The notes below the pieces were generated by a model. It had not been told where the DNA came from. It did not search any database and was given only the letters and a program-made list of their open reading frames with translations. Positions 43,141-61,532 of a DNA stretch of 64,000 bases are shown here, piece by piece. Source of the DNA: Roseibacillus sp. (GTDB taxonomy: Bacteria > Verrucomicrobiota > Verrucomicrobiia > Verrucomicrobiales > Akkermansiaceae). Made by a program: the position numbers and the translations under genes. The stretch is from positions 407,832 through 471,831 of the forward strand of contig CBDEUM010000029.1 in the NCBI GenBank assembly GCA_965242925.1, given 5' to 3'. The number at the start of each line of letters is the position of its first letter. Within the stretch, counting starts at the first letter, position 1.

Positions 43141-44550
43141 ATGAAGCGACTTCTTGGTCAGAACCTGGCCATCTGGCCTGCCCTTCTGCTTATTCAGGCA
43201 GTTTCCGCCCAGAATGTTATCAGTGTGAATTTCGACGGGCAGGGAGGTACCGGCACTCCTGGTCCGGTCACGGGCGTTGCGGGTTCGGTCCCGGTCGATA
43301 ATTGGAACAATAGCGGGGTGTCCGCGCTGAATGGGCCTCTTGCCCTTGTCGACAATGCCGGCTCCCCCACTACGGCGACCGTGCTCTGGTCCGTGGCCAA
43401 CCAATGGACCACCAATGGCGGAGACAGCAGCGGGGGTGATGCCACGATGATGCAGGGGTATCTGGACAACTTTCACGACCGCCCCCCGATCGAGATTACC
43501 GGGATTCCGGCTTCCTTCATGGCAAGCGGCTACGAACTCCGGATTTATCACAACACCGACAGTGGCGGCGCGATGGGTTTCACCGTCAGTGATGACGGAG
43601 GGCTCACTTCCACCACCCACTATAGTTATCAACCGGGGGGCAATAACTCGAACTTCCCCCTGGCCGGAGTTGATCCGTTCGGAGGTGCGGCCGGATATAT
43701 TGGCAGCCAGGAAACCGGCGGCGGCGCCACGACGGCCTCGAATTACACTCTCTTCACGGAATTGTCTGGTTCGGCTGTGACGATAACCGGCGTCCGGGGT
43801 GCTTCCGGAGACACCCGTTCGCGCCCCAACGGATTTCAAATCGTGGCCAAGGCAGTGCCGGGTGCGCCCGTGGTGGAAAACAATCCAGCCACCGGCATAG
43901 CATCCCGTTCGGCCCGCCTCAATGGAACCGTAACCGCTATCGGAAGCGCCGCGCCTGTGGTGACGATCTACCATGGTGACAACGATGGTCTGGCCAATCC
44001 GGCGGACTGGGACACTGCGGTAGAGTTGCCCGGAACGCAGGCGGGGGCCTTTTTCGCCGATGTGACCGGCCTGCACCCCGGCAGGACCCACTATTACCGC
44101 GCCTACGCAAGCAATGAGTCGGGCGCGCGCTGGGCTCCCGCCAGTGATTCATTTCAGACCGGGGTGGAGCCTCCGGTGCTGGTGAACCTGCCCGCCACCG
44201 GGATCATGACGAACAGCGCCGAGATAGGTGTGGAGGTGACGAGCACGGGAGGAGAGGTGCCGCTCGTGACTGTTTACTATGGCTTGACGGACGGCGGCAC
44301 CACGGAGGGGGACTGGGATAGCTTCGCGCTGCTGGGGGCCCAGTCGGGGGCGGCGACCACCACGGTTACCGGTCTGCAGACAGGTCGCTCCTACTTTTAC
44401 AGGGCCCGGGGGGTGAATGGAGAAGGAACGGTCTGGGCGTCGGCCACCGCCAGCTTTGCCACTGCACAACCGGTGCCGCCCAGCGTGGTGACCCGCAGTG
44501 CGGACGGCGTCCGGGGTGCCTCCGCCAACCTGCGGGGAGAAGTGATCTGA
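43141..44550 (+). CDS. Secreted protein, N-part: repeated unassigned domain (copy 1) plus FN3-like repeats; frameshifted into the next ORF
   Basis: Signal ending VSA-Q; domain 43216-43845; repeats A..I....A...G.V...G...P.VT.YYG..DG...W...YYRA.A.N..G..W. Confidence 0.8.
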   Translation: MKRLLGQNLAIWPALLLIQAVSAQNVISVNFDGQGGTGTPGPVTGVAGSVPVDNWNNSGVSALNGPLALVDNAGSPTTATVLWSVANQWTTNGGDSSGGDATMMQGYLDNFHDRPPIEITGIPASFMASGYELRIYHNTDSGGAMGFTVSDDGGLTSTTHYSYQPGGNNSNFPLAGVDPFGGAAGYIGSQETGGGATTASNYTLFTELSGSAVTITGVRGASGDTRSRPNGFQIVAKAVPGAPVVENNPATGIASRSARLNGTVTAIGSAAPVVTIYHGDNDGLANPADWDTAVELPGTQAGAFFADVTGLHPGRTHYYRAYASNESGARWAPASDSFQTGVEPPVLVNLPATGIMTNSAEIGVEVTSTGGEVPLVTVYYGLTDGGTTEGDWDSFALLGAQSGAATTTVTGLQTGRSYFYRARGVNGEGTVWASATASFATAQPVPPSVVTRSADGVRGASANLRGEVI

Positions 44551-44632
44551 CGCTGGCTTCGATGCTCCCACTGTCACGATCTTCTATGGTGACAATGACG
44601 GTGGGATCGAGCCCGGCTCATGGGATCAGGCA

Positions 44633-47600
44633 GTGACGATCGGCGAGCGTAGCGGTGAGTTCTCTCTTTTCGTCTCCGATCTGGTGCCACTCACCACCTA
44701 CTATTTCCGCTGCCGGGCCACCAATGTGGCGGGCACTGTCTGGGCACCGGGCAGCGAGACCTTCACGACCACGGACCTGCTCAGCAGCTCGATTGTGATC
44801 AACGAGATCCACTATGATCACGAACCGAAAACCGAACGCGGGGAGTTCATTGAGATTTTCAATCCGAGTGACTCTCCTGTTCTGCTGACTGGCTGGCAGA
44901 TCAATGGCGCGATTGATTTTGACTTCCCGGAGGGAACCCAGATCTCCGCCAACGGGTTCCTCGTGATCGCGGAGGATCCCGCGACCATGAGATCGGTCTT
45001 CGGGATCAGAAATGCCCTTGGACCCTATACCGGTCGGCTGAGTAACGACGGTGAGCGTCTTGAACTGGAAAACGAGAACGGATTCCTGGTGGACGAGGTT
45101 GACTATGGGATCGGATTTCCCTGGCCCACTGCTTCCCGGGGAGGGGGACCCTCGATGGAACTCATCAATGAGAATCTCGACAATGACCTGGGAAGTTCCT
45201 GGCGGGCTTCCGGCAACGCCGCGCCGGGGGGAGCGCAGGTCACTTATGTCGAAGCGGGGCAATCGTGGCGCTACCGTAAGGGCACGAGCGAAGCCTCCGA
45301 TCCGGTTGACGCCTGGCGCATGCAGGGTTTCACCGAAGACGAGACCTGGGTGACCGGGACGGCGGGGTTCGGTTACGGGGACAGGGATGACACCACGACC
45401 CTGGACGACATGAGGAACAACTACGCAAGCGTCTTCCTGCGCAAGGAATTCAATCTCATCGGGACCATTCCCACCCGGCTCGAGATCCGTGTCTATCACG
45501 ATGACGGTGCGATTGTCTGGATCAACGGCGAGGAAGTGGCCCGGGTGAGCGTGGACCAGGGTGATCTCACCTACCGGGGAGTCAGGGCTTCTGATCCAGC
45601 GGGGGCTGCACCCGGTAGCGCGGTCAACAGTCAGGAGGCGACCTGGACCGACATTCTGTTCCTTGGTGCACAAAACACGCTTCGGCCGGGTGTGAACACC
45701 GTGGCCGTGCAGGGTTTTAACAGCACTCTTTCGAGCAGCGATTTCTCCCTGGATTGCGAAGTGAAGACGCCTTCCCCTGATAACCCGGGCAACCCGGCAG
45801 GAGGGGATCCCACTCCCGGGGCCGCCAATTCCGTCTATGCGGCCAACGCCCCTCCCAATATCCGGCAGGTTGAGCACATGCCTGTGCAACCCGCCGAGGG
45901 CGAGGAAGTGGTTGTCACCGCCAAGCTCACTGATCCCGACGGGATAGGGAGCGTGATCCTCAACTATCAGCTGGTGGAGCCGGGGGCCTATATCAACAAG
46001 GAAGACGCGGCCTACGAGAACGGCTGGGTGCCCCTCGCCATGGTGGACGACGGCACGGGTGGGGATGGGGCGGCAGGCGATTCGGTTTTCACGGTGACCA
46101 TGCCCGCCGGGTTACAGGTGCACCGCCGCCTGGTCCGTTACCGGATCACGGTGGAAGACGGCGTGGGCAATGCCCAGCAGACTCCCTACGAGGACGATGA
46201 GTCACCGAACTTCGCCTACTTCTGTTATAACGGGGTGCCGGACTGGTCAGGGTCCAAGCGTCCCGGGGTGCTTCGTAGTGCCAACTACCGCGCTTCCGCA
46301 CTCGACAGTATTGCGGTCTACCATCTCATTACCAAGGAATCCGATGTGATCCAGTGCCAGTGGAGCGGACCGACCGACGGTGTATACCGTTACCTGGGGA
46401 CCTGGGTCTACGATGGGAAGGTCTACGATCACATGCGCTACCGGATTCGGGGTAATGCTTCCGTCCGCCAGGTGGGCAAGAACAAGTGGAAATTCAACTT
46501 CAACCGGGCCCGGTCCTTCGAGGCCCGTGACAACTACGGGCGCAGGTATGATGTGCCCTGGGACAAGATCAACGGACTGGCCGCCACTAACCCGTGGTGG
46601 CGTAATGATGTCTCCACGGATGGCACGGTCTTCGGTGAGTCCCTCGGGTTCCGCCTGTATCAACTGGCAGGTGGACTCGCCAGCAACACGCAGTTCTATC
46701 ACTTCCGCGTCATTGACAAGGCGGCGGAGGCACCTTCAGACCAGTACGACGGTGACTTCTGGGGTCTCTACATCGCGGTCGAGCAACCCGACATCAAGTT
46801 CCTTGAGGCCCGCAACATGCCCGACGGCAACCTTTATAACGTCCATGGCGGGTCGGGATCGAGCAAGCGGGCCCAGGGCTCGACCCAAGCCAGCGACAAG
46901 TCGGACCTCTTCACCTTCCAGGGACTGCACCGCAGCGGAACCCCGCAGGCCCGGTGGGAGGCCCACCTGGACCTCGACGACTACTTCGCCTTCAACGCGA
47001 TGAACCTCGCAATCAATAACTCCGACATGCGTCCGCAGGATAACGTGAACTATTATCACAACTCGGAGACCGGCAAGTGGCATATCATTCCCTGGGACAT
47101 CGACCTGACCTTCGAGGATGCTCCCCATTGGGGTCGTGGAGACACCTCTGCCTGGGAGGGGATCTATCACTGCCTGCGGTATTCGAGCATCAACCAGGTT
47201 TATGAGAACAAGGTGCGCGAAATCCTCAACCTTCTCCTCGACAATGACCAGTCCGCCCACTTGGTCGATGAATTCGCGGGGTTCCTGACCAAGGGTGGTC
47301 GCTATAACATCGTGGAAGCAGGGCAGGCGGTCTGGGATTACCATCCACGCAAGAACAAGAAGGGCATCTGGTACGCCAACTTCAATTCATCCCTCCTGCC
47401 CAACCGGACCTTTGCCAACCTCGCCCAGTACACCAAGGACTTCCTCACGGTGCGCGGCTACGGACGCAGCAACCTGGCCAGCAAGGCGGTTGACAACGCG
47501 ATCCCGGACAGGCCTGCCATCACTTACACGGGCCCGGCTGGATTTCCAGCTGACGCCCTGACCTTCCAGTCATCATCTTTCAACGACCCGCAGGGAGGTC

Positions 47601-48808
47601 GCACCTTTGGATCGATGGAGTGGCGTGTTGGGGAGATCCGCAATCCGGACACTCCCAATTACGTGGAGGGTGATCGCTACGTCTACGAGATCGAGACCTA
47701 CTACCAGAGCGACCGGCTTACACCATTTCAGAGCCAGTTCACCTTCCCGACTGTTGAGATGAGACCCGGCCGGACCTATCGTGCCCGGGTGCGTCACCTC
47801 GACAACAGTGGCCGCGCCAGCCACTGGTCCGATCCGGTGGAGTTCACGGCCACGACCCCGGACCTCGATCTCTGGACCAGCAACCTGATGGTCACCGAGG
47901 TTCATTACAATCCCCTCCCTGCCAGCGCAGCTGAGATCACCTCTGGATTCGTCACCTCCGATTTCGAGTTCATGGAGATCCAGAATATTAGTTCCACTCT
48001 CACCCTTGATCTCACCGACATCCGCTTCACCAAGGGAATCGACTTTGACTTCGCGGATGGAACGATCACCAGCCTGGCGCCAGGGGCCTTTGCGCTGGTG
48101 GCACGCAATCCCGCCGCCTTTGAGTCACGTTACGGGGCAGGACTGCCCATTGCGGGGAGCTACGGGCCCGACAACCTTTCCAACGGGGGCGAAAACGTGA
48201 AGCTCTCCTTTGGAGCCGGCTCTGCCATCCAGGAGTTCCACTACCTTGACGTCGCGCCGTGGCCCTCCGGCCCGGATGGAACCGGGGTGTCTCTGGTCCT
48301 TGTGAATCCCGCTGCTGCTCCCGATCACGCTGATCCCCTTAACTGGAGAGCCAGCCTGACGGTGGGTGGGAGCCCGGGGGAGGCCGAACAGACTGCGACC
48401 CTGGTGAATTGGAGGAACGACAACTTTACCGCCGCCGAACTTGCTGATCCCGATCTCACGGGGGACCTGGTTGATATCGATCTTGATGGGATGAACACCA
48501 TCATGGAATACGCATTCGTGGGTGACCCCAAGTCATCGGATCCGGAGCACCTGCCCCGGTTGGTGACGGTGACCGATGGCGGGGTGGACTACCTCGGCCT
48601 CGCGATTCGCCGCCGGGCGGGAGCAGGCGATCTGACCTACGAGGTCCAGTCGTCCGGCAATCTGATGGATTGGATCGTGGAGAGCGGCGTGGTGGCGGTA
48701 AGTTCCGTGGACAACGGTGATGGCTCGGTGACGGAGACGCTGCGGCTGCCTGTGACGGTGGTTTCGGGGGTTCGAATGTTCCTGCGGGTGCGGGTGACAG
48801 TGATTTGA
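44633..48808 (+). CDS. Secreted protein, C-part: lamin-tail domains, CotH kinase-like domain, verrucomicrobial C-terminal module
   Basis: IVINEIHY..EFIEI.N and LMVTEVHY..EFMEI.N (LTD); RIRG, KWKFNF, GLY..VEQ.D, NYY..W..IPWDIDLTF (CotH); ends FLRVRVTVI. Confidence 0.85.
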   Translation: MTIGERSGEFSLFVSDLVPLTTYYFRCRATNVAGTVWAPGSETFTTTDLLSSSIVINEIHYDHEPKTERGEFIEIFNPSDSPVLLTGWQINGAIDFDFPEGTQISANGFLVIAEDPATMRSVFGIRNALGPYTGRLSNDGERLELENENGFLVDEVDYGIGFPWPTASRGGGPSMELINENLDNDLGSSWRASGNAAPGGAQVTYVEAGQSWRYRKGTSEASDPVDAWRMQGFTEDETWVTGTAGFGYGDRDDTTTLDDMRNNYASVFLRKEFNLIGTIPTRLEIRVYHDDGAIVWINGEEVARVSVDQGDLTYRGVRASDPAGAAPGSAVNSQEATWTDILFLGAQNTLRPGVNTVAVQGFNSTLSSSDFSLDCEVKTPSPDNPGNPAGGDPTPGAANSVYAANAPPNIRQVEHMPVQPAEGEEVVVTAKLTDPDGIGSVILNYQLVEPGAYINKEDAAYENGWVPLAMVDDGTGGDGAAGDSVFTVTMPAGLQVHRRLVRYRITVEDGVGNAQQTPYEDDESPNFAYFCYNGVPDWSGSKRPGVLRSANYRASALDSIAVYHLITKESDVIQCQWSGPTDGVYRYLGTWVYDGKVYDHMRYRIRGNASVRQVGKNKWKFNFNRARSFEARDNYGRRYDVPWDKINGLAATNPWWRNDVSTDGTVFGESLGFRLYQLAGGLASNTQFYHFRVIDKAAEAPSDQYDGDFWGLYIAVEQPDIKFLEARNMPDGNLYNVHGGSGSSKRAQGSTQASDKSDLFTFQGLHRSGTPQARWEAHLDLDDYFAFNAMNLAINNSDMRPQDNVNYYHNSETGKWHIIPWDIDLTFEDAPHWGRGDTSAWEGIYHCLRYSSINQVYENKVREILNLLLDNDQSAHLVDEFAGFLTKGGRYNIVEAGQAVWDYHPRKNKKGIWYANFNSSLLPNRTFANLAQYTKDFLTVRGYGRSNLASKAVDNAIPDRPAITYTGPAGFPADALTFQSSSFNDPQGGRTFGSMEWRVGEIRNPDTPNYVEGDRYVYEIETYYQSDRLTPFQSQFTFPTVEMRPGRTYRARVRHLDNSGRASHWSDPVEFTATTPDLDLWTSNLMVTEVHYNPLPASAAEITSGFVTSDFEFMEIQNISSTLTLDLTDIRFTKGIDFDFADGTITSLAPGAFALVARNPAAFESRYGAGLPIAGSYGPDNLSNGGENVKLSFGAGSAIQEFHYLDVAPWPSGPDGTGVSLVLVNPAAAPDHADPLNWRASLTVGGSPGEAEQTATLVNWRNDNFTAAELADPDLTGDLVDIDLDGMNTIMEYAFVGDPKSSDPEHLPRLVTVTDGGVDYLGLAIRRRAGAGDLTYEVQSSGNLMDWIVESGVVAVSSVDNGDGSVTETLRLPVTVVSGVRMFLRVRVTVI

Positions 48809-48972
48809 ACCTGCACGGGAGCTGAAAAGCAGGGGTAAACGTGTTCGGGTTCCTTCATTATCTGGTGTGGGCTGCTTTAACAGGATGTCAATAAAGTGGC
48901 GAAAATAATCAAATTATTCCATTTACACCCCTCTCCTGCGGCCCCTTAATCGCCTCAACCCATTAAATACGC

Positions 48973-49734
48973 ATGAAACTCAATACGTTCATCCCTCTCC
49001 TATCCGCTTCTGGTTTCTTGGTAGCAGGAGCTACTGCGGGCACGATCAGCCTGAATTTCGACGGCCAAAGCGGCACAGGCACTCCTGGTGCGGTCACGGG
49101 CGTGGCAGGTGCGATTGCGGTCGGTAACTGGAACAATACCGGTCAGGGAAATGCCTTTAATAGTGGGCCTCTTGACCTTGTCGATGACAGCGGTGCCGCC
49201 ACCGGTGCTGTCGCGAACTGGTCAGTGGCCAACCACTGGACCACCAATGGTGGAGACAGCAGTGGTGGCGATGCCCAGATGATGCAGGGGTATCTCGACA
49301 ACTTCCACGACCGTCCTCCGATCACGGTCACCGGGATTCCTTACGCGCAGTATGATCTCCGGATCTATCACAACACTGACAGCGGCGGCGCGATGGGTTT
49401 CACCGTCACTGATGGGCTCATTACCACCACCCACTATAGTTATCAGGCGGGGGGCAATAACTCGAACTTCCCCCTGGCCGGAACTGATCCGTTCGGAGGT
49501 GCGGCTGGATACATTGGCAGCCAGGAAACCAGCGGTGGCGCCACCAATGGATCGAATTACACTCTCTTCACGGGATTGACCGGTACGGACCTGAGTATAC
49601 AGGGCGTCCGGGGCGCTGCTGGCGACACCCGCACGCGTCCCAACGGGTTCCAGATCACTCAGATCCCCGAGCCCTCCTCGATCTTGCTCCTGGTGCTCGG
49701 ATCAGCAGGCATCTTCATTCGCCGTCGGCGTTAA
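48973..49734 (+). CDS. PEP-CTERM protein consisting only of the repeated unassigned domain (copy 2)
   Basis: Signal peptide, domain 49042-49659, then IPEPSSILLLVLGSAGIFIRRRR. Confidence 0.93.
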   Translation: MKLNTFIPLLSASGFLVAGATAGTISLNFDGQSGTGTPGAVTGVAGAIAVGNWNNTGQGNAFNSGPLDLVDDSGAATGAVANWSVANHWTTNGGDSSGGDAQMMQGYLDNFHDRPPITVTGIPYAQYDLRIYHNTDSGGAMGFTVTDGLITTTHYSYQAGGNNSNFPLAGTDPFGGAAGYIGSQETSGGATNGSNYTLFTGLTGTDLSIQGVRGAAGDTRTRPNGFQITQIPEPSSILLLVLGSAGIFIRRRR

Positions 49735-49848: not shown

Positions 49849-52800
49849 GTGCACGGGCCGGCGAAATATCATCCCTCCGCCCGGAGACTTGTAGCGGGCT
49901 CGCTCCTTGCACTGGGCTTCGTTGTAGTTGCCGCCTGTGAAGGTCCGAAAGTCAACGGGGAAGGCGGTAGCCGGAACGACGACGATCCGCCAGTGGGCGC
50001 GTCGCAACCGGATTTCACCCCCGTCCTGACTGCTCCGGAGGGATCCCTGGAGGCCAGGCCTCTCGCGACGCGTTCTGAACCGACGGGGGAGACTCTCTTC
50101 CAGCGGCTTGCGCCGGAGCAGACCGGGGTTGCCTTTCAAAACAGGATCGACATCAGCCATCCCCTCAAGCGGCTCTACCATTCCGGCTTTGTGTGTGGTG
50201 GGGTGGCCATAGGCGACATCGATGGTGACGGGCTTCCTGATCTCTTCTTTGCGAGCGGCCCGGGGCAGAACAAACTCTACCGGCAGACTGAAACCGCCTT
50301 CCGGTTTGAGGACATCACCGCGGCAGCCGGGGTGGGGGGAGGAAAGGCCTGGGGCACGGGGGCAGCGTTGGCCGATCTTGATAACGATGGAGACCTCGAC
50401 CTCTACATCTGCAACTACGACTCTCCCAATGCGCTCTACCTGAACGACGGCATGGGGAAGTTTGAAGAGGCTGCTGCCCGGTTCGGTCTGGCCCGGGTCG
50501 ATGCCTGCCTCCTGCCGACTTTCTGTGACTATGACCAGGATGGCGATCTCGATGTGTTTCTCCTGACCAACCGCTACTACCGGGCGGGAGGCCGTCCCGT
50601 CAAGCCGCCCTTCAAGCAGGCCGGGAACGGCAGGGCGGTGGTCAAGCCGGAGTTCAGGAAATTCTATGGCCTTAGCGAGAAGGGGCCGGGTGACTACGAC
50701 ATGGATGAAGTGGGTCGTCCCGACATTCTCCTGCGTAATGACGACGGCCAGTTCAAGGATGTCAGTGAAACGGCCGGAATTCAGGTGCGCGGCCACGGCC
50801 TGGCAGCCACCTGGTGGGACTATGACCACGATGGGTTGATGGATCTCTACGTCTGCAATGATTTCGCGGATCCTGACAACCTGTTCCGCAATAATGGGGA
50901 TGGCACCTTCACCAATACCATCACCTCGGTGGTCAATTACACGCCCTGGTTTTCCATGGGGGCTGATGCGGGGGACATCAACAATGACGGGCAACTCGAC
51001 TTCGTGGCTCTCGATATGGCGGCCACCACACACTACAAGTCCAAGATGGCAATGGGGGAGATGGGTGTCTTGCGCTACCTCATCGAGAAGGCCCTGCCTC
51101 GTCAGGTGATGCGAAACTGCTTGTATGTGAGCACCGGGACGGGGCGCTACACCGAATGCGCAAGCCTCTCGGGGGTGTCCAATTCGGATTGGTCGTGGGC
51201 CCCGAAGCTGGCCGACTTTGATAACGACGGGCGGGTTGACCTCTTTATTTCCAACGGGATGGCGCGCGACTTCAATAACTCGGATATTTCGTTCACGGCG
51301 GCTGACCAGATCGGGAAGAGTTTGTGGGATCACTACGAGAATTCGCCTCCCAAGCTGGAGCAGAACCTGGCCTTCCGTAACAAGGGGGACTATGCCTTCG
51401 AAGATGTGAGCAAGACCTGGGGGCTCGATCACGTGGGCATGAGCTACGGCAGCGCCTACGGCGACCTCGATGGGGACGGCGATCTCGATCTGGTCACGGT
51501 GAACCTGGAGGAACCCGTCAGCATTTGTCGCAATGACTCTCAGACGGGGAACCGGGTCACGGTGTCCCTGCGGGGAGTGCGTTCCAACCGCTTTGGTCTC
51601 GGGGCGCTGGTCACGGTGGAAGCTGGCGGCATCAGGCACGTGCGGCAACTGGTGCCCATGAGTGGCTACCTCTCCAGTAACGAGCCGATTGTGCATGTCG
51701 GACTGGGAGAGGCGGCCACAATCGACAAGCTGAGTGTGCGCTGGCCGGATGGTGGGGTGCAGGACTACCGCGGGTTACAGGCCAACCAGCACTACACCAT
51801 CACGGAAGCGGGAAAGGCTCTTCCCAAGATGGAGCGCAAGAAGCCGGATCCGCTCTTCGCGCCCGAGACGCGCCTGCGCGGAATCGTTCACAAGGAGAGA
51901 ATCTTCGAGGACTTCTCGCGCCAACCGCTCCTGCCCAACAAGCTCTCCCAACTCGGTCCGGGTATTGCGTTCGGGGATGTGGATGGCAACGGTAGCGAGG
52001 ATTTTTTCGTTTCGACCGCGCGCGGGCAGTCCGGTGCCATCTTCCTGAATGATGGGAAGGGCAATTTCCGGGTGGGCGCGACCTCGCCCTTTGACGCCGA
52101 CGAGGACACCGAGGGGATGGGAGCCCTCTTCCTTGATGCTGACTCGGACGGGGACCAGGACCTCTACGTGGCCAGCGGGAGTTATGAGTATGATCCAGGG
52201 AGCCTGATGACCCGTGACCGGCTCTACCTGAACAATGGGAAGGGAAACTTTACCAAGGCCTCCCTCGATGCCCTGCCAGTGTTCCGGGACAACAGCAGTT
52301 GTGTGGTGGCCGCCGACTTCGACCGTGATGGGGATCTTGATCTCTTTGTAGGCGGGCGGGTTGTCTCTGGTGATTATCCCATGCCCGCGCAGAGCCGCCT
52401 CCTTCTCAACGAGTCCGGCGAGGGCAGGGTGAGGTTTGTGGAGGCTCCTCCCGAGCGGGCCCCGGGGTTGCGCTCCACAGGGATGGTCACTGGCGCCCTG
52501 TGGTCCGATGCCGACGGAGACGGCTGGATCGACCTCCTGGTCACTCACGAGTGGGGGCCGGTGAAGCTCTTTCGAAACGAAAAGGGCACGTTGGTGGATG
52601 TCACGGAAAAGAGCGGGTTGCACAAGCACCTGGGCTGGTGGAACAGCATCACGGGAGGCGATCCCGACAATGATGGCGACATCGACTATGCGGTGGGTAA
52701 TGTCGGACTGAACACCAAGTATCATGCTGATCCCGGCCATCCGGTCATACTCTACTATGGAGACTACGGGGACGAGGGAGTGAAACGGCTGGTGGAGGCC

Positions 52801-53604
52801 AAGTACGAGAATGATGTAATCGTGCCCGCTCGCGGGAAGAGCTGTTCCACCAAGGCCATGCCGCACCTCAGTAAGAAGTTTGGCACCTTCCACCAGTTTG
52901 CGAGCGCGACCTTGCCCCAGATTTATACCAAGGAATGCCTGAGCGAATCAGTAAAGCTGGAGGCCAACACCCTGGAATCCGGGATCTTCATCAACGACGG
53001 AAAGGGGGGCTTTTCCTTCCGGCCCCTTCCCAAGGCGGCCCAGTCGTCTGCCATTTTCGGTCTTGAATTCGTGGAGGTAGACGGTGACGGCAAGCTGGAC
53101 CTCTATGCGGTGCAGAACTTTTCCAATTCGCAATTCGAGACCCCTCCGTTCCGGGGTGGTCTGAGCGTTCTGCTCCGGGGTGACGGGAAAGGTGACTTTA
53201 CGATGGTGTCGCACTCCGAAAGTGGATTGGTGGTACCCACCGACGGGCGGGCACTGGCCTGCAGCGACCTCAATGGTGATGGCCGCCCTGACTTCCTGGT
53301 CGGCATCAACAACGGGGAACTGCTCGCCTTCACCAATCGTCGCACACCTGCCGCCGGGGTTCTCCGTCTGCAGGGAAAAGGGGGAAACCCGTCCGTTGCC
53401 GGTGCGCGAGTGACTCTGGTGAGTAAGGATGGAACGCGCGTGCAGGAAGTTTACCAGGGTGGGGGCTATCTCTCCCAGTCGACTCCCTCGATCTTCCTCG
53501 ATTCGGGCGTGACCAGGGTGGAGGTGGGCTGGCCGGACGGTTCCTCAAGTAGCCATCCGGTGGACCCCGCCACCCGGGAGACGGTCATTTCCGTCCCGGA
53601 GTAG
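49849..53604 (+). CDS. FG-GAP/VCBS repeat protein with ASPIC/UnbV domains (CRTAC1-like), probable lipoprotein
   Basis: Many D.D.DG..DL repeats; SNRFGLGA.V...GYLSS...HVGLG...VRWPDG (ASPIC/UnbV), with a second copy at the C-terminus; VAA-C lipobox candidate. Confidence 0.9.
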   Translation: MHGPAKYHPSARRLVAGSLLALGFVVVAACEGPKVNGEGGSRNDDDPPVGASQPDFTPVLTAPEGSLEARPLATRSEPTGETLFQRLAPEQTGVAFQNRIDISHPLKRLYHSGFVCGGVAIGDIDGDGLPDLFFASGPGQNKLYRQTETAFRFEDITAAAGVGGGKAWGTGAALADLDNDGDLDLYICNYDSPNALYLNDGMGKFEEAAARFGLARVDACLLPTFCDYDQDGDLDVFLLTNRYYRAGGRPVKPPFKQAGNGRAVVKPEFRKFYGLSEKGPGDYDMDEVGRPDILLRNDDGQFKDVSETAGIQVRGHGLAATWWDYDHDGLMDLYVCNDFADPDNLFRNNGDGTFTNTITSVVNYTPWFSMGADAGDINNDGQLDFVALDMAATTHYKSKMAMGEMGVLRYLIEKALPRQVMRNCLYVSTGTGRYTECASLSGVSNSDWSWAPKLADFDNDGRVDLFISNGMARDFNNSDISFTAADQIGKSLWDHYENSPPKLEQNLAFRNKGDYAFEDVSKTWGLDHVGMSYGSAYGDLDGDGDLDLVTVNLEEPVSICRNDSQTGNRVTVSLRGVRSNRFGLGALVTVEAGGIRHVRQLVPMSGYLSSNEPIVHVGLGEAATIDKLSVRWPDGGVQDYRGLQANQHYTITEAGKALPKMERKKPDPLFAPETRLRGIVHKERIFEDFSRQPLLPNKLSQLGPGIAFGDVDGNGSEDFFVSTARGQSGAIFLNDGKGNFRVGATSPFDADEDTEGMGALFLDADSDGDQDLYVASGSYEYDPGSLMTRDRLYLNNGKGNFTKASLDALPVFRDNSSCVVAADFDRDGDLDLFVGGRVVSGDYPMPAQSRLLLNESGEGRVRFVEAPPERAPGLRSTGMVTGALWSDADGDGWIDLLVTHEWGPVKLFRNEKGTLVDVTEKSGLHKHLGWWNSITGGDPDNDGDIDYAVGNVGLNTKYHADPGHPVILYYGDYGDEGVKRLVEAKYENDVIVPARGKSCSTKAMPHLSKKFGTFHQFASATLPQIYTKECLSESVKLEANTLESGIFINDGKGGFSFRPLPKAAQSSAIFGLEFVEVDGDGKLDLYAVQNFSNSQFETPPFRGGLSVLLRGDGKGDFTMVSHSESGLVVPTDGRALACSDLNGDGRPDFLVGINNGELLAFTNRRTPAAGVLRLQGKGGNPSVAGARVTLVSKDGTRVQEVYQGGGYLSQSTPSIFLDSGVTRVEVGWPDGSSSSHPVDPATRETVISVPE

Positions 53605-53961
53605 GGAGTTTCCCGGAGGCGGAGAGTTGTTCGCAAAGCAGGAGGAAGTTGAAATATATGGATCTCTGAAATTCAGAGAGCTGCCGCTCAAGGGAACCAT
53701 GCGTAAACATTTTCGTCCTAATATCACGGATCTTGGCGAACAGGACTCCATTAGGATGGATACCCGGAACTTTTCCCTGCCAGTAATACTCGCCTGTCCC
53801 GGTCTCATTCTCCGTGTTGGCTGAGTCCTGCTTCCGTACAGAACTGCAATTCTTCTTTCGTTCTGATGTTCGAATTCTTAATCGTATAGAAGCGTCTCGT
53901 GTCAGAGATCGCTCCTGTTTCACAACCCATTCAACCCATTCAACCCATTCAACCTAATCTC

Positions 53962-56900
53962 ATGAAACATTACCCTGTGAGAAAGAACAAGTCGGCTACG
54001 TGGTGTGCGGTCGCATTTTGCCTGACGGTCGCGAGCGCTTTCGCCCAGTCGATCATCAGCTTGAACTTCGACGGCCAGGATGGCACCGGCACTCCCGGTC
54101 CGGTCACCGGCGTGGCGGGTTCGGTCCCGGCCGATAACTGGAACAATACTGGAACCGGAAATGGCGGCAATGTCGGGGTAGGGGTTGCCCTTGTCGACGA
54201 CAGTGGTGCCGCCACCGGCGCTACCGTGAACTGGTCAGTGGCCAACCACTGGACCACCAATGGCGTAGACAGCAGCGGAGGCGATGCCCAGATGATGCAG
54301 GGGTATCTCGACAACTTCCACGACCAACCCCCGATCGAGATTACCGGGATTCCGGACTCCTTCATGGCAAGCGGCTACGAACTCCGGATTTATCACAACA
54401 CCGACAGTGCCGGCGCGATGGGTTTCACCGTCGACGATGGAAATGGTCCGACCACCTACTATAGTTATCAACCGGGGGGTAATAACTCGAACTTTCCTTT
54501 GGCCGGAGCTGATCCGTTTGGAGGTGCGGCCGGATACATTGGCAGCCAGGAAACCGGCGCTACCGCCACGACGGCCTCGAATTACACTCTCTTCACGGGA
54601 TTGTCGGGGGCCTCTGTGACCATAACCGGCGTCCGGGGCAGTGCCGGAGACACCCGCTCGCGTCCCAACGGATTTCAAATCGTGTCTACCGGCCCTTCCC
54701 TGGACGATGACGAAGATGGTCTTGCCGATAGCTGGGAAACGGCCAATGGGCTTGATCCTGCTGATGACGGATCGGTCGATATCAACAATGGACCGGCCGG
54801 GGATCCGGATAATGATGGCTCGGCCAACCTGGAGGAGTTTGAACGGAGGACCGATCCGCAGAGCGACGACACTGACGATGACGGGTTGCTGGACGGGGTG
54901 GAGAGTGGAAGCGGAATTTTCGCGAGTGAAACCGACACGGGCACCGATCCGCTGGATGCCGATAGTGATGGAGATAGCCTGGTGGACGGCGCCGAGGTTG
55001 CGGCCGACCCCTTCGTGACCGATCCCAATAATCCGGATACGGACGCTGATGGCGTGAATGACGGCACCGAGATTTCCAGTGGATCGGATCCGACCGATCC
55101 GACTGATGTTCCGGGCGGGGGTGTTATCGGGGCTGTCATCAGCATGAATTTCGACGGCCAGACCGGTACGGGCACTCCTGGCGCGGTTACGGGCGTGGCA
55201 GGTTCGATTCCGGTCGGTAACTGGAACAACAGCGGTCAGGGAAATGCCTTTAATGAGGGGCCTCTTGACCTTGTCGACGACAGCGGTGTCGCCACCACGG
55301 CTACTGTGAACTGGTCAGTGGCCAACCACTGGACCACCAATGGAGGAGACAGCAGTGGAGGCGATGCCACGATGATGCAGGGGTATCTCGACAACTTCCA
55401 CGACCGGCCCCCGATCGTTGTCAGTGGGATTCCCGCCTCCTTCATGTCAAGCGGCTACGAACTCCGGATCTATCACAACACCGACAGTGCCGGCGCGATG
55501 GGTTTCACCGTCAGTGATGACGGAGGGCTCACTTCCACCACCCACTATAGTTATCAACCGGGTGGCAATGGATTCAACTTTCCCCTGGCCGGAGCTGATC
55601 CGTTCGGAGGCGCGGCTGGATACATTGGCAGCCAGGAAACCGCCGGTGGGGCCACGACGGCCTCGAATTACACTCTCTTCACGGGATTGTCGGGGGCGGA
55701 GTTGACCATAACCGGTGTCCGGGGCAGTGCTGGCGACACGCGCTCGCGTCCCAACGGGTTTCAGATCGTGGCGATTGGCCCCGCCCTGGACGATGACGAA
55801 GATGGTCTTGGCGACAGCTGGGAAACGGCCAATGGGCTCGATCCCGCTGATGACGGATCGGTCGATATCAACAATGGGCCGGCCGGGGATCCGGATAATG
55901 ATGGCTTGGCCAACCTGGAGGAGTTCGAACGGGGGACTGATCCACAGAACGACGACAGCGACGATGACGGGTTGCTGGACGGGGTGGAGAGTGGAACCGG
56001 AATCTTCGTGAGCGAAACTGACACGGGGACGAATCCGAGGGATGCCGATAGTGACGGTGATGGCCTGGAGGACGGGGCCGAGGTGGACACTCACCAGACA
56101 GACCCCACTGATGCCGACTCTGATGACGACGGAACCGACGATGGCGACGAGCTGCAGATAGGGACCAATCCCAATGATGCGAATTCCATTCCACCGCTGG
56201 CGCTGCCCATCGGCTACTGGTCTTTCGATGATCAGGGTGCCGGTGGAACGACTGCGGATTTGTCCAACGGCGGCAACGACGGGACCCTCAATGGCGGTCC
56301 TGAGGTGGTGGAGGGTCCTTGTGGCCCCGGCGATTTCGCCCTTAAGTTCGACGGGATCGATGACTCGGTGACCACTGAGGTGTCCCTCTTCACGGGGGGA
56401 GCGGAGTTTACCATGTCGGGCTGGGTCAAGTTCGAGACTGCCCAGATCGGAAACCGGATCGGCTGGTTTGGGCAGAACGATGCGGTGGAATTCGGCCTCA
56501 TCAATCCGGCCCAACTGCAGCATTGGACCAATGTGGGAGGCGCGCTCAACTTGGCAGTTGCGGACACCTCTCCGGAGTGGATGCACGTGGCCATCACCGG
56601 TGACGCAGCGGGAAGGATCGCCTACCTCAACGGCGTGGCGGATCCCACCCCCGGCAACTCTGCTGCCGGGGCGTCATCGGCATTTCCCTTCAACATCGGG
56701 GGCTCAGGGATCTACGATGCCAGCGGCAACTGGTTTACCGGATGTATCGACGAGGTCGCGGTCTGGGACAAAGCTCTCACTGCGGACGAAATCATGCAAT
56801 TGGCCACCTGTGCAATCACACCGCTCGGACGTCAGCGGTCCCAGGTGGGAGTTGAGATCACCGAGTTCCATCGCACGGGGACCGGGGATATCCAGATCAG

Positions 56901-57588
56901 CTGGAAAAGCCGCCAGGACCGGCAGTATGACATCCTGAGTAATGCCGACCTGAGCACGCCACGGCTCCAGTGGGCCGAAGTGGCGGGCGCTCAGGATATT
57001 CAGGGTGATGCCTCGGGGATCACCACCGCGGTAGTGGCAGCGCCCTTCCCGGAGACCGGATACCTGGTCGTGCGTGAAGAAGGGCTTCCGGCCCTCTTCG
57101 AGGACGACCTGGAGAGCGACACGGGGTGGACTGCCATTGTCAACGACGCCAACGGCAACACCAACTGGGAGAGGGGTAGTCCCAATGGCAGCACTGGTCC
57201 CCTGACCGGGGCCGATGGTTCCGCCAACGCGTGGTGCACCAACCTTGGTGACTACGGACCGGACTCCGATATCTCCCTCCGGTCACCGGCCATCGACCTG
57301 ACCGGGGTGGTGGCCGCGGAGTTGAGCTTCGAGGCCTTCCGGGATGGCGATGGGTTCGGGGATGTCGCTTCCGTTCGTTTCCTGCGTGCGGCCGACCAGG
57401 TGCAGTTGGGTGCGGAAATCTCGATCGATATGACCGTATTTGATGCCGCCTGGAAGGCTCAGACCATCCCGGTGGAAGATGAGGCCATCGGGGAGAGCGT
57501 CATCATTGAGTTTAATTTTGTCAGTGACAGCAGTCCGGATGCCTTCAGCGGACTCTCCATCGACAACATTGAGGTGAGCGTGCCCTGA
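53962..57588 (+). CDS. Large secreted protein: two copies of the unassigned domain, TSP3-like Ca-binding repeats, LamG-like domain, C-terminal jelly-roll-like domain
   Basis: Signal ending AFA-Q; domains 54052-54684 and 55135-55770; D.D.DGL.DG.E repeats; YWSFD...FDG.DD.V...FT.SGW...W.HVA...IDEVAVW..AL (LamG). Confidence 0.9.
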   Translation: MKHYPVRKNKSATWCAVAFCLTVASAFAQSIISLNFDGQDGTGTPGPVTGVAGSVPADNWNNTGTGNGGNVGVGVALVDDSGAATGATVNWSVANHWTTNGVDSSGGDAQMMQGYLDNFHDQPPIEITGIPDSFMASGYELRIYHNTDSAGAMGFTVDDGNGPTTYYSYQPGGNNSNFPLAGADPFGGAAGYIGSQETGATATTASNYTLFTGLSGASVTITGVRGSAGDTRSRPNGFQIVSTGPSLDDDEDGLADSWETANGLDPADDGSVDINNGPAGDPDNDGSANLEEFERRTDPQSDDTDDDGLLDGVESGSGIFASETDTGTDPLDADSDGDSLVDGAEVAADPFVTDPNNPDTDADGVNDGTEISSGSDPTDPTDVPGGGVIGAVISMNFDGQTGTGTPGAVTGVAGSIPVGNWNNSGQGNAFNEGPLDLVDDSGVATTATVNWSVANHWTTNGGDSSGGDATMMQGYLDNFHDRPPIVVSGIPASFMSSGYELRIYHNTDSAGAMGFTVSDDGGLTSTTHYSYQPGGNGFNFPLAGADPFGGAAGYIGSQETAGGATTASNYTLFTGLSGAELTITGVRGSAGDTRSRPNGFQIVAIGPALDDDEDGLGDSWETANGLDPADDGSVDINNGPAGDPDNDGLANLEEFERGTDPQNDDSDDDGLLDGVESGTGIFVSETDTGTNPRDADSDGDGLEDGAEVDTHQTDPTDADSDDDGTDDGDELQIGTNPNDANSIPPLALPIGYWSFDDQGAGGTTADLSNGGNDGTLNGGPEVVEGPCGPGDFALKFDGIDDSVTTEVSLFTGGAEFTMSGWVKFETAQIGNRIGWFGQNDAVEFGLINPAQLQHWTNVGGALNLAVADTSPEWMHVAITGDAAGRIAYLNGVADPTPGNSAAGASSAFPFNIGGSGIYDASGNWFTGCIDEVAVWDKALTADEIMQLATCAITPLGRQRSQVGVEITEFHRTGTGDIQISWKSRQDRQYDILSNADLSTPRLQWAEVAGAQDIQGDASGITTAVVAAPFPETGYLVVREEGLPALFEDDLESDTGWTAIVNDANGNTNWERGSPNGSTGPLTGADGSANAWCTNLGDYGPDSDISLRSPAIDLTGVVAAELSFEAFRDGDGFGDVASVRFLRAADQVQLGAEISIDMTVFDAAWKAQTIPVEDEAIGESVIIEFNFVSDSSPDAFSGLSIDNIEVSVP

Positions 57589-57666: not shown

Positions 57667-57901
57667 TGGAGGGGTAGTGATGCAAGTGTCCGGTGGGTGG
57701 ACCTGCAGCTTCGTCCAGAGCGAGTGGGATTCCGGGTCGTTCCCATGTTTGAGGGATCAATCCGGTGGTGCCGGAGAGTTTTGTTGCGCTAGCATCCTAT
57801 TCGGTAATTGTTCTTTCACTATGATGTTCAGATCTCTAATCGTATAGGAGCTTCACTCAGAGCGAGAGCGCCACGGTTTGACAACCCATTCAACCCATTC
57901 C

Positions 57902-60493
57902 ATGAAACACTACTTCGAAAAAAAACCCAACCCGGCTATGTGGTGCGCTATCGCACTCGGGCTCACCATCGCGAGCTCCTTTGCCCAGTCGGTCATCAGC
58001 ATGAATTTCGACGGCCAAAGTGGCACTGGCACTCCTGGTGCGGTCACGGGGGTGGCGGGTTCGGTCCCGGCTGGTAATTGGAACAACAGCGGTCAGGGAA
58101 ATGCCAATAATGTCGGGCCACTTGACCTTGTCGACGCCACCGGTGCCGCCACCGGTGCTACCGTGAACTGGTCAGTGGCCAACCACTGGACCACCAATGG
58201 TGGAGACAGCAGCGGAGGCGATGCCCAGATGATGCAGGGCTACCTGGACAACTTCCACGACCGACCCCCGATCGAAATCACGGGGATTCCCTACGGGGCG
58301 TATGAACTCCGGATCTATCACAACACCGACAGTGGCGGCGCGATGGGTTTCACCGTCGACGATGGAAATGGTCCGACCACCTACTATAGTTATCAACCGG
58401 GGGGTAATAACTCGAACTTTCCTTTGGCCGGAGCTGATCCGTTTGGAGGTGCGGCTGGATACATTGGCAGCCAGGAAACCGGCGGTGGCGCCACGACGGC
58501 CTCGAATTACACTCTCTTCACGGGATTGTCGGGGGCCTCTGTGACCATAACCGGCGTCCGGGGCAGTGCCGGAGACACCCGTACGCGTCCCAACGGATTT
58601 CAAATCGTGTCTACGGGTCCTCTCCTGGACGATGACGAAGATGGTCTTGCCGACAGCTGGGAAACGGCCAATGGGCTTGATCCTGCTGATGACGGATCGG
58701 TCGATATCAACAATGGACCGGCCGGGGATCCGGATAATGATGGTTCGGCCAACCTGGAGGAGTTTGGACGAGGGACCGATCCGCAGAGCGACGACACTGA
58801 CGATGACGGGTTGCTGGACGGGGTGGAGAGTGGAACCGGAATCTTCGTGAGCGCAACCGACACGGGGACGGACCCGCTGGATGACGACAGCGATGGAGAT
58901 AGTCTGGTGGACGGGGCGGAAGCTTCCGCCGATCCCTTTGTCACCGATCCCAACAACCAGGATACGGACGATGATGGTGTGAATGACGGCACCGAGATCT
59001 CCGGTGGGTCGGATCCGACCGATCCGACCGATGTTCCCGGCGGGGGTGGCGGCGGGGGTGTCATCAGCATGAATTTCGACGGCCAAAGTGGCACTGGTAC
59101 TCCTGGTGCGGTCACGGGGGTGGCGGGTTCGGTCCCGGTCCGTAACTGGAACAACAGTGGTCAGGGAAATGCCTTTAATGAGGGGCCTCTTGCTCTTGTT
59201 GACGCCACCGGTGCCGCCACCGGCGCTACCGTGAACTGGTCAGTGGCCAACCACTGGACCACCAATGGCGTAGACAACAGCGGAGGCGATGCCCAGATGA
59301 TGCAGGGCTACCTGGACAACTTTCACGACCGACCCCCGATCGAAATCACGGGGATTCCCTACGGGGCGTATGAACTCCGGATCTATCACAACACCGACAG
59401 TGGCGGCGCGATGGGTTTCACCGTCGACGATGGAAATGGTCCGACCACCTACTATAGTTATCAACCGGGGGGTAATAACTCGAACTTTCCTTTGGCCGGA
59501 GCTGATCCGTTTGGAGGTGCGGCCGGATACATTGGCAGCCAGGAAACCGGCGGTGGCGCCACGACGGCCTCGAATTACACTCTCTTCACGGGATTGTCGG
59601 GGGCCTCTGTGACCATAACCGGCGTCCGGGGCAGTGCCGGAGACACCCGTACGCGTCCCAACGGATTTCAAATCGTGTCTACGGGTCCTCTCCTGGACGA
59701 TGACGAAGATGGTCTTGCCGATAGCTGGGAAACGGCCAATGGGCTTGATCCTGCTGATGACGGATCGGTCGATATCAACAATGGACCGGCCGGGGATCCG
59801 GATAATGATGGTTCGGCCAACCTGGAGGAGTTTGGACGAGGGACCGATCCGCAGAGTGACGACACTGACGATGACGGGTTGCTGGACGGGGTGGAGAGTG
59901 GAACCGGAATCTTCGTGAGCGCAACCGACACGGGGACGGACCCGCTGGATGACGACAGCGATGGAGATAGTCTGGTGGACGGGGCGGAAGCTTCCGCCGA
60001 TCCCTTTGTCACCGATCCTAACAACCAGGATACGGACGATGATGGTGTGAATGACGGCACCGAGATCTCCGGTGGGTCGGATCCGACCGATCCGACCGAT
60101 GTTCCCGGCGGGGGTGGCGGCGGCGGCGGTGTGGTCAGGGCTGTCATCAGCATGAATTTCGACGGCCAAAGTGGCACTGGCACTCCTGGTGCGGTCACGG
60201 GGGTGGCGGGTTCGGTCCCGGTCGGTAACTGGAACAACAGTGGTCAGGGAAATGCCAATAATGTCGGGCCTCTTGCTCTTGTTGACGCCACCGGTGCCGC
60301 CACCGGCGCTACCGTGAACTGGTCAGTGGCCAACCACTGGACCACCAATGGCGGAGACAACAGCGGAGGCGATGCCACAGATGATGCAGGGCTACCTGGA
60401 CAACTTTCACGACCGTCCCCCGATCGAAATCACGGGGATTCCCGACTCCTTCATGTCAAGCGGCTACGAACTCCGGATCTATCACAACACTGA
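57902..60493 (+). CDS. Paralog of the 53962 gene, N-part: tandem [domain + TSP3-like] units; frameshifted at ~60377
   Basis: Signal ending SFA-Q; domains 57992-58609 and 59060-59677, third copy starting at 60143. Confidence 0.85.
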   Translation: MKHYFEKKPNPAMWCAIALGLTIASSFAQSVISMNFDGQSGTGTPGAVTGVAGSVPAGNWNNSGQGNANNVGPLDLVDATGAATGATVNWSVANHWTTNGGDSSGGDAQMMQGYLDNFHDRPPIEITGIPYGAYELRIYHNTDSGGAMGFTVDDGNGPTTYYSYQPGGNNSNFPLAGADPFGGAAGYIGSQETGGGATTASNYTLFTGLSGASVTITGVRGSAGDTRTRPNGFQIVSTGPLLDDDEDGLADSWETANGLDPADDGSVDINNGPAGDPDNDGSANLEEFGRGTDPQSDDTDDDGLLDGVESGTGIFVSATDTGTDPLDDDSDGDSLVDGAEASADPFVTDPNNQDTDDDGVNDGTEISGGSDPTDPTDVPGGGGGGGVISMNFDGQSGTGTPGAVTGVAGSVPVRNWNNSGQGNAFNEGPLALVDATGAATGATVNWSVANHWTTNGVDNSGGDAQMMQGYLDNFHDRPPIEITGIPYGAYELRIYHNTDSGGAMGFTVDDGNGPTTYYSYQPGGNNSNFPLAGADPFGGAAGYIGSQETGGGATTASNYTLFTGLSGASVTITGVRGSAGDTRTRPNGFQIVSTGPLLDDDEDGLADSWETANGLDPADDGSVDINNGPAGDPDNDGSANLEEFGRGTDPQSDDTDDDGLLDGVESGTGIFVSATDTGTDPLDDDSDGDSLVDGAEASADPFVTDPNNQDTDDDGVNDGTEISGGSDPTDPTDVPGGGGGGGGVVRAVISMNFDGQSGTGTPGAVTGVAGSVPVGNWNNSGQGNANNVGPLALVDATGAATGATVNWSVANHWTTNGGDNSGGDATDDAGLPGQLSRPSPDRNHGDSRLLHVKRLRTPDLSQH
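57992..60127 (+). repeat. Near-perfect 1068-bp tandem duplication
   Basis: Shadow ORFs recur at a fixed offset of 1068 (58302/59370, 58566/59634) with near-identical translations. Confidence 0.93.
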
Positions 60494-61532
60494 CAGTGCC
60501 GGCACGATGGGTTTCACCGTCGACGATGGAAATGGTCCGACCACCTACTATAGTCATCAACCGGGGGGTAATAACTCGAACTTCCCCCTGGCCGGAGCTG
60601 ATCCGTTCGGGGGAGCTCCCGGATACATTGGCAGCCAGGACACTGACGGGGGCACCACGACGCCCTCGAATTATACCCTGTTCACGGGATTGTCGGGGGC
60701 GGAGGTGACCATAACCGGTGTCCGGGGCAGTGCCGGGGACACGCGTTCGCGTCCCAACGGGTTTCAAATCGTGGCGATCGGCCCTCCCGTGAACGTTGAG
60801 ATCACTGAGTTCCGCCGCACGGGGACCGGGGATATCCAGATCAGCTGGAAAAGCCGCCAGGACCGGCAGTATGACATCCTGAGTAATGCCGACCTGAGCA
60901 CGCCACGGCTCCAGTGGGCCGAAGTGGCGGGCGCTCAGGATATCCAGGGTGATCCCTCGGGGATCACCACCACGGTGGTGGCGACGCCTTTTCCGGAGAC
61001 CGGATACCTGGTCGTGCGTGAAGAAGGGCTTCCGGCCCCCTTTGAGGACGACCTGGAGACCGACACGGGATGGACTGTCATTGTCAATGATGCCAATGGC
61101 AACACCAACTGGGAGCGGGGTAGTCCCAATGGCAGCACCGGTCCCCTGACCGGGGCCGATGGTTCCGCCAACGCGTGGTGCACCAACCTTGGTGACTACG
61201 GACCGAACTCCGATATCTCCCTTCGCTCACCGGCCATCGACCTGACCGGGGTGGTGGCCGCGGAGTTGAGCTTCGAGGCCTATCGGGACGGCGATGGGTT
61301 CGGGGACATTGCTTCCGTTCGTTTCCTGCGTGCGGCCGACCAGGTGCAGTTGGGGGCGGAAACCTCGATAGACATGACGACGTTCGATATCAATTGGACG
61401 GTTCAGACCATTCCGGTGGAAGCTGAGGCGATCGGGGAGAGCATCATGATTGAGTTTAATTTTGTCAGTGACAGCAGTCCGGATGTCTTCAGCGGACTCT
61501 CAATCGACAACGTTGAGGTGAACGTGCCCTGA
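60348..61532 (+). CDS. Paralog C-part: rest of domain copy 7 plus C-terminal region nearly identical to the 53962 gene
   Basis: MMQGYLDNFHDRPP... then VEITEF.RTGTGDIQISWKSRQDRQY...GLSIDNVEVNVP; LamG domain absent. Confidence 0.85.
   Translation: MAETTAEAMPQMMQGYLDNFHDRPPIEITGIPDSFMSSGYELRIYHNTDSAGTMGFTVDDGNGPTTYYSHQPGGNNSNFPLAGADPFGGAPGYIGSQDTDGGTTTPSNYTLFTGLSGAEVTITGVRGSAGDTRSRPNGFQIVAIGPPVNVEITEFRRTGTGDIQISWKSRQDRQYDILSNADLSTPRLQWAEVAGAQDIQGDPSGITTTVVATPFPETGYLVVREEGLPAPFEDDLETDTGWTVIVNDANGNTNWERGSPNGSTGPLTGADGSANAWCTNLGDYGPNSDISLRSPAIDLTGVVAAELSFEAYRDGDGFGDIASVRFLRAADQVQLGAETSIDMTTFDINWTVQTIPVEAEAIGESIMIEFNFVSDSSPDVFSGLSIDNVEVNVP

Follow-up and report, generated by a model that had tools for sequence, protein, structure and literature searches.

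Seven paralogous domain copies at a Roseibacillus sp. locus form a mosaic that is likely to reflect homologous recombination between paralogues

Here, we focus on a locus of Roseibacillus sp. (Verrucomicrobiota; Akkermansiaceae) at which seven copies of an uncharacterised domain, distributed over four genes, form a patchwork of shared sequence blocks. The locus lies at 43.1-61.5 kb of a 64,000-nucleotide (nt) stretch (the window; contig CBDEUM010000029.1 of assembly GCA_965242925.1, forward-strand positions 407,832 to 471,831) and comprises five genes on the + strand. The host assembly is a draft of 42 contigs and 4.58 Mb with a completeness of 89.9% and a contamination of 3.2%. Source names on close protein matches place the organism in or near Roseibacillus, a marine Verrucomicrobium, and near-identical DNA is present in seawater and marine metagenomes from 10 studies. 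The patchwork is statistically significant, extends to synonymous sites and can be timed relative to two sister lineages. As argued below, ordinary homologous recombination between the paralogues is its likely source.

The copies (c1-c7) were found by motif and then aligned; each spans about 205 amino acids (aa). Gene 1 (43141..48808, + strand) encodes a signal peptide, c1 (43219..43842, +), fn3-like modules, two lamin-tail domains and CotH, with Pfam matches to LTD and CotH. The short gene 2 (48973..49734, +; 253 aa) consists of a signal peptide, c2 (49045..49656, +) and a PEP-CTERM sorting signal. The latter is matched by PF07589 (26.9 bits, cut-off 20.7, residues 230-252) as well as TIGR02595 (25.7 bits, cut-off 16) and has the PEP motif, the transmembrane helix and the basic tail expected of such signals. 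An intervening FG-GAP/ASPIC-UnbV gene (49849..53604, +) is devoid of the domain and is kept in syntenic loci. Gene 3 (53899..57588, +) carries c3 (54055..54681, +), a TSP3-like acidic linker, c4 (55138..55767, +), a further linker, LamG_3 and a choice-of-anchor-J C-terminal domain. Gene 4 (57878..61532, +) ends in the same type of C-terminal domain, preceded by c5 (57995..58606, +), c6 (59063..59674, +) and c7 (60146..60770, +) with a linker between successive copies. Hence, all seven copies reside inside long open reading frames (ORFs), four of them directly behind an N-terminal signal-like hydrophobic segment and three behind acidic linkers. The linkers (54682-55137, 55768-56084, 58607-59062 and 59675-60145; about 150 aa) are rich in D, G and TSP3-like calcium-binding motifs and are repeated together with the copies as units of 1068-1096 nt. 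These coordinates agree with a preliminary description of the locus, which had placed seven domain copies at 43216-60773. The copies are direct repeats of 80-97% identity, all within 18 kb, and the 4.58-Mb assembly holds no further copy outside the locus (8/8 matches inside, c7 counted as two pieces).

Two of the genes appear interrupted in the assembled sequence. Gene 1 reads as two ORFs (43141-44550 and 44633-48808) owing to one extra base at 44545-44548. Contigs from three of three sequencing runs are one base short here, at 44546 (X15) or at 44548 (X1 and X4), the ATCT of the window corresponding to ACT in X15 and to ATC in X1 and X4. Either three-base form yields a single gene 1 ORF of about 1890 aa, as in relatives. 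In gene 4, one extra base within c7 (60377..60377, +), where the window has ACAG and the paralogues have ACG or CAG, likewise leaves two ORFs, 57878-60493 and 60348-61532. Contigs of the three runs show no indel row at 60377, which is uninformative either way. Both frame breaks are probably merged-allele consensus artefacts because each corresponds to a merged 4-nt string of two 3-nt alleles, as is typical of a consensus from mixed molecules. Annotators should thus be warned that the two apparent pseudogenes are probably consensus errors.

The domain itself is matched by no Pfam or NCBIfam model, and neither a profile search of Protein Data Bank (PDB) sequences with the domain (E<=1) nor a Foldseek search of its model against the PDB (E<=1e-3) returned a match. 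The family is nevertheless sizeable, with 681 representative clusters at E<=1e-3 and 191 at E<=1e-10, and proteins often carry 2-5 copies. A literature search found no paper with both Roseibacillus and PEP-CTERM, this being the one literature query that touched the domain family. The AlphaFold2 model of the gene 2 protein is a beta sandwich (predicted local distance difference test score, pLDDT, 86.7; predicted template modelling score, pTM, 0.84). Structural superposition with VIA-align, on which the fold call rests and for which a best Z of 7-8 is common background, matches the model to the N-terminal domain of YxiM (2o14, Z 11.0), the malectin-like region of FERONIA (6a5e, Z 10.2), the C-terminal module of a Bacteroides beta-glucuronidase (GUS; 6d50, Z 10.1) and a carbohydrate-binding module (CBM) of a pectate lyase (8x8h, Z 9.4), while CBM6, CBM35, CBM32 and CBM36 reach only Z 6-7.5. 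The top four matches have root-mean-square deviations of 2.9-6.4 over 133-162 residues; 113-162 residues are aligned across all matches, at 9-15% identity. There is thus moderate evidence that the domain adopts a beta jelly roll like those of CBMs and malectin; the matches themselves say nothing about function. Given this predicted fold and the secreted or PEP-CTERM-sorted proteins that carry the domain, glycan binding at the cell surface is its probable role.

Among the copies, alternative sequence blocks assort independently, as the preliminary description had proposed. Block A has a long form (SFM) in c1, c3, c4 and c7 and a short form (Y..Y) in c2, c5 and c6. Blocks B (DSGG or DSAG) and C (SDD or DDG) occur in all four combinations in the protein alignment, namely DSGG/SDD in c1, DSAG/DDG in c3, DSAG/SDD in c4 and DSGG/DDG in c5, and the other block combinations given in that description are seen as well. 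Likewise, the pairs NAFNEG/NANNVG, PLDLV/PLALV, GVD/GGD, DSS/DNS, DAQ/DAT and RSR/RTR assort as claimed, apart from the DAQ/DAT state of c7, which is ambiguous because this is the very place where the extra base at 60377 shifts the reading frame. The two forms of block B differ by one G/C change (GGC vs GCC). Hence, the four-gamete pattern of B against C could on its own be recurrent mutation.

The nucleotide alignment of the seven copies has 601 ungapped columns, of which 191 are variable and 85 parsimony-informative, and 44% of the pairs of informative sites are incompatible. The pairwise homoplasy index (PHI) test, for which a null result had been named beforehand as counter-evidence, is significant with 50- and 100-nt windows (p=1e-4) and with a 200-nt window (5e-4; 10,000 permutations), the PHI statistic lying 5.6-6.2 standard deviations below the permutation mean. 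The neighbour similarity score (NSS) gives the same result (p=1e-4, 10,000 permutations). Further sets are significant too: c1-c5 (p=0.0026), the window copies together with those of a closer lineage introduced below (2e-4) and the six copies of that lineage alone (2e-4). We also restricted the test to differences in codons whose amino acid is invariant across the seven copies (63 sites, 30 informative). At these synonymous sites 49% of the pairs are incompatible and PHI remains significant with 3 (p=0.0012) or 6 neighbours (p=0.018). The mosaic is therefore a feature of the DNA as well as of the protein, and convergent selection at the protein level, which we considered as a sole cause, cannot explain it.

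Runs of concordant polymorphic sites were examined in a GENECONV-like test with 5000 permutations, likewise envisaged beforehand, which detects seven pairwise fragments with a global P<0.05. The best of these join c3 to c6 (columns 362-510, P=0.0008) and c1 to c4 (columns 362-425, P=0.0062). In c3, this corresponds to a tract of 149 nt (54411..54559, +) identical to 59404-59552 in c6, of which 120 nt are also identical to 58336-58455 in c5; a second identical c3 tract of 93 nt follows (54564..54656, +). The c1 tract (43566..43637, +) shares 72 nt with 55491-55562 in c4 and carries the SDDGGLTSTT block. Exact tracts of 72-149 nt thus join copies that are otherwise 84-91% identical.

Comparison with relatives anchors the mosaic in time. 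A search of 41 genomes (the window's own and 40 relatives) gave a match in 20 of them. In one genome of the same genus (G012), the syntenic locus holds four copies. The CotH gene carries G12a, the PEP-CTERM gene carries G12b, and the LamG-type gene carries both G12c and G12d. In sliding windows, c1 is nearest to its orthologue G12a in columns 40-160 (86-88%) and nearest to its paralogues c3, c4, c2 and c6 in columns 200-560 (91-98%). Similarly, c3 is nearest to G12c/G12d in columns 0-160 and then to c5/c6 (99-100%). Maximum-likelihood trees reflect this change. In columns 1-165, c1 and G12a pair with a support of 97/100, and the approximately unbiased (AU) test rejects a clade of the seven window copies (p=8.8e-5); in columns 441-634, the seven copies form one clade (92/97).

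The distribution of single bases agrees with the trees. At 7 columns (361-576), c1-c4 share one base and all four G012 copies another. Outgroup copies (G16, G01, G19, G03) never have the window base at these columns; they carry the G012 base at five, three of the four do so at column 517, and other bases occur at 540 and 576. The window base is found at 7/7 columns in c5 and c6 and is missing from c7 at 6/7. Conversely, c1 and G12a have 22 sites private to the pair, and 20 of these fall within columns 5-255. The shared derived sites and the private sites of c1 and G12a together indicate that the 3' two-thirds of the domain have been homogenised across genes since speciation and that the 5' third of c1 has not. 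Accordingly, the 5' part of c1 (43224..43464, +) is still orthologue-like, whereas its 3' part is homogenised with the paralogues. The claim of the preliminary description that duplication and divergence alone cannot easily produce the pattern is thus borne out by PHI (including synonymous sites), the identical tracts, the orthologue-anchored trees and the shared derived sites.

A second, closer lineage allows individual transfers to be placed. It is represented by a 20.8-kb piece (L035) of a 93.6-kb metagenome contig, which is collinear with 38984-56084 of the window at a median identity of 94% and carries six copies (m1-m6). Identity between positional orthologues is 96% for c1, 94% for c2, 95% for c3, 91% for c5 and c6, and 79% for c4. 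Copy c3 differs from m3 exactly where c3 equals c5/c6. Since m3 and domain 1 of an independent protein (P0040) retain DDGSGP...GNGSNF at this place and domain 1 of P0042, a relative of c5, retains the c5 form, the polarity of this first event is probably from a c5/c6-type donor into c3 in the window lineage. In the other lineage, a c1-type tract (the SDD block and the VDPFGG of c1; 80+50 nt identical to m1) is present in m5 and m6 but missing from c5, c6 and P0042. This suggests that m1 was copied into m5 and m6. Judged from these comparisons, both transfers postdate the split between the window and L035 lineages. At the same gene position, the block combination is consequently Y/GG/DDG in c5 and c6 and Y/GG/SDD in m5 and m6, and recombination, as read from these aligned copies, creates new block combinations.

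Copies c5 and c6 share 97% identity. The closest public relative of gene 4, P0042 (853 aa), has two domain copies and the window has three. Either a 1068-nt unit was recently duplicated in tandem within gene 4 of the window, or the repeat has collapsed in the P0042 assembly.

We propose that the seven copies are paralogues in partial concerted evolution. The general homologous-recombination machinery of the cell would copy stretches from one copy to another (ectopic gene conversion), with tracts ranging in length from tens of nucleotides to about 150 or more. With each transfer, the recipient would become equal to the donor over the tract, and this tract would at the same time enter a new combination with the flanking blocks of the recipient; hence the patchwork. 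That transfer is non-reciprocal, depends on RecA and takes place within the genome instead of by import is what we infer from these patterns. The gene recA is present in the genome. The preliminary description had suggested that no dedicated recombinase is required, and this stands: no recombinase, invertase or reverse-transcriptase family is found in the locus genes or in the 28 large ORFs scanned elsewhere in the window, the scan taking in ORFs of at least 250 aa and, within 61.5-62.7 kb, shorter ones too. Taken together, we consider it likely that the mosaic results from ordinary homologous recombination between paralogues, to which strains have probably added some exchange among themselves. 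Overall, recombination homogenises the copies, and locally it reshuffles them.

Several observations weigh against this interpretation or narrow it. The synonymous-site signal weakens with a wider neighbourhood (p=0.074 at 10 neighbours), and PHI is not significant for sets of four sequences, i.e., c1-c4 (p=0.35, 32 informative sites) and the G012 copies (p=0.08). In columns 441-634, the groupings c1+G12a (AU p=0.21) and c2+G12b (AU p=0.14) are not rejected, and the choice of groups for the AU test was in part made with the trees already at hand. All compared sequences are metagenome or draft assemblies, the order of c5-c7 stems from a draft consensus and not from phased reads, and the window holds two probable consensus errors. 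Furthermore, for some tracts the genome itself offers no close donor. The 3' tract of c2 is best matched not by m2 but by m5/m6 of the other lineage, with 49485-49578 identical to m5 except for one base. The 5' half of c4 is at most 90-95% similar to any copy, and the low identity of c4 to m4 (79% against a background of 94%) is part of a 2-kb divergent block (55021-57100). This segment looks like an allelic or cassette replacement and not like a short tract.

Tracts of this kind point to exchange between strains as well. Related strains might have supplied whole alleles or segments, taken up as DNA and integrated by homologous recombination, and as the main source of the mosaic such import is conceivable, though we give it less weight than exchange between paralogues. 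It would account for the c2 tract that resembles m5 of the other lineage, for the divergence of c4 from m4 and for the domain-level swap within the 2-kb block: at L035 17100-18120, which corresponds to 56084-57095 of the window, the gene 3 orthologue has a third, highly divergent domain copy where the window and P0040 have LamG_3. The two c2 allele types in public assemblies (P0001-like and P0002-like) are also consistent with it. Import alone, however, does not account for the 7 sites with a derived base common to copies from three to four different genes, and it fails on the exact tracts between non-allelic copies of one contig (c3=c6, c1=c4 and m1=m5=m6). Thus, exchange of alleles between strains probably contributes and is best seen as a contributor to recombination between paralogues, not as an alternative to it. 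Two public c2-type PEP-CTERM proteins show further mosaics: P0004 has a c4-like central tract, and P0005 has a c7-like N-terminus followed by Y/GG/SDD and a c2-like C-terminus. Their contigs are short (980 and 2117 nt), and the proteins may be real recombinants or assembly chimeras.

A stronger claim is that the locus serves as a standing, cassette-free diversification system, in which all seven expressed glycan-binding-like domains are mutual donors and selection by changing polysaccharide substrates, or by phages that use the proteins as receptors, maintains the reassortment of blocks A, B and C between strains. We regard this as unlikely on the present data. If it were true, the loop combination at a given gene position would differ between close lineages, as is observed for c5/c6 compared to m5/m6. 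The preliminary description had likewise suggested that short-tract recombination could generate combinatorial variants of surface loops, and had proposed mapping the variable blocks on a predicted structure. In the model, blocks A, B and C do sit in loops or hairpin turns, and new combinations do arise. Yet variable residues overall are not enriched outside strands (48/128 vs 28/83, Fisher p=0.66), and the ratio of non-synonymous to synonymous substitution rates (dN/dS) is 0.20-0.39 in 15 of the 15 pairs among c1-c6. Moreover, much of the signal is homogenising and not diversifying, and the c4 difference, the largest between the lineages, belongs to the 2-kb segment. No silent cassettes are seen at the locus, every copy being part of a full-length gene; together with the lack of a reverse transcriptase or a nearby recombinase and with the low dN/dS, this means that selected loop-shuffling is not demonstrated. 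A role of the recombination in selected diversification is possible but unsupported.

Path switching or a mixed-read consensus among near-identical repeats might also have produced chimeric mosaics during assembly. The draft state of the 42-contig assembly with its incompleteness and contamination, the two frame breaks at sites of merged 3-nt alleles, the odd mosaics P0004 and P0005 on their short contigs and a 100-N gap in the G012 version of the gene all make this worth weighing. Furthermore, Logan contigs break inside the repeats, and a raw Illumina run gave 18 reads. We nevertheless find such an artefact quite improbable as the cause. The four B/C combinations recur in independent assemblies: AG/DDG in domain 1 and AG/SDD in domain 2 of P0040, GG/DDG in domain 1 of P0042, GG/SDD in G12a and m1, with P0001 and P0002 as counterparts for c2. 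The X15 contig (5113 nt) covers 43001-43564 with 2 differences and confirms the 5' junctions of c1, and the L035 piece is collinear over 17 kb, its orthologues of c1, c2 and c3 being 94-96% identical. Finally, the derived-site pattern at the 7 columns cannot come from chimerism.

Still more remote is a dedicated system of the vlsE, pilE/pilS or diversity-generating retroelement (DGR) type that would produce surface-loop variants at high frequency. The combinations that differ at one gene position between c5/c6 and m5/m6, the predicted loop location of blocks A, B and C and the predicted secretion or surface sorting of the proteins would fit such a system. However, all copies are in long ORFs, four of them right behind a signal-like segment, the dN/dS values are low, and the window scan for recombinase, invertase and reverse-transcriptase families was negative as described above. 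An Rfam scan of 40000-64000 found no family at the gathering score, and the 89.9%-complete genome has no RVT_1 match. The differences are not adenine-specific, as neither base is A at 104 of 157 biallelic sites, with C/G at 33 sites. A DGR is rejected on the missing RVT_1 match in this incomplete genome and on the non-adenine-specific differences, and cassette-type antigenic variation as in vlsE, pilE/pilS and msp2 does not fit a locus at which all seven copies are in full-length genes and no silent truncated donors are seen. Parallel mutation and shared constraint without any recombination are hardly credible: the single nucleotide of block B and the single substitutions behind DSS/DNS, RSR/RTR and GGD/GVD could recur, but incompatibility clusters by distance (PHI and NSS), the signal is also present at synonymous sites, and among the shared blocks there are indels as well as runs in which up to 40 polymorphic sites follow one another.

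Two further features of the window lie outside the domain genes. Downstream of the locus, at the end of synteny with G012, a 92-aa ORF overlaps a 136-aa PIN-domain ORF (PF01850, E=1.2e-9) by 4 nt (61947-62632), an arrangement with the look of a VapBC-type toxin-antitoxin pair. Upstream, 19639-26989 holds a gene cluster of the Planctomycetes-Verrucomicrobia type (DUF1501, PSCyt2/PSD1, PSCyt3/PSD4/PSD2/PSCyt1 and DUF1552), which has no relation to the domain mosaic.

Gene conversion among paralogous surface-protein genes is textbook knowledge, and the mechanism is not new. The locus rather offers a compact and well-anchored example in a free-living marine Verrucomicrobium, in which two sister lineages provide the date and the direction of single transfers, and it draws attention to an uncharacterised domain family with a CBM-like predicted fold and no Pfam model. 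Should selected reshuffling of loops between strains prove true, this would be relevant to the question of how degraders of marine polysaccharides, or the phages of these bacteria, keep pace with variable glycans.

Ectopic gene conversion and concerted evolution are known for bacterial paralogues such as Brucella omp2a/omp2b, the Helicobacter pylori bab/sab genes, and the tuf and rRNA operons. Like these systems, the Roseibacillus locus has non-allelic copies on the same chromosome that share tracts, segment trees that conflict and paralogues of one genome that share derived states, and only general recombination is needed. It differs in that the units are domains spread over four multidomain genes instead of whole genes, and in that they belong to an uncharacterised family in a free-living marine Verrucomicrobium. 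With regard to the fold, the predicted structure superposes on CBM and malectin-like jelly rolls, but the domain belongs to no curated CBM or malectin family by sequence. Borrelia vlsE, Neisseria pilE/pilS and Anaplasma msp2 likewise use short tracts of variable length to build mosaic surface-protein sequences, and conversion at pilE/pilS is RecA-dependent, according to a review (PMC4534519). These systems combine one expression site with promoterless silent donors and switch within an infection, whereas in Roseibacillus each copy is part of a full-length gene.

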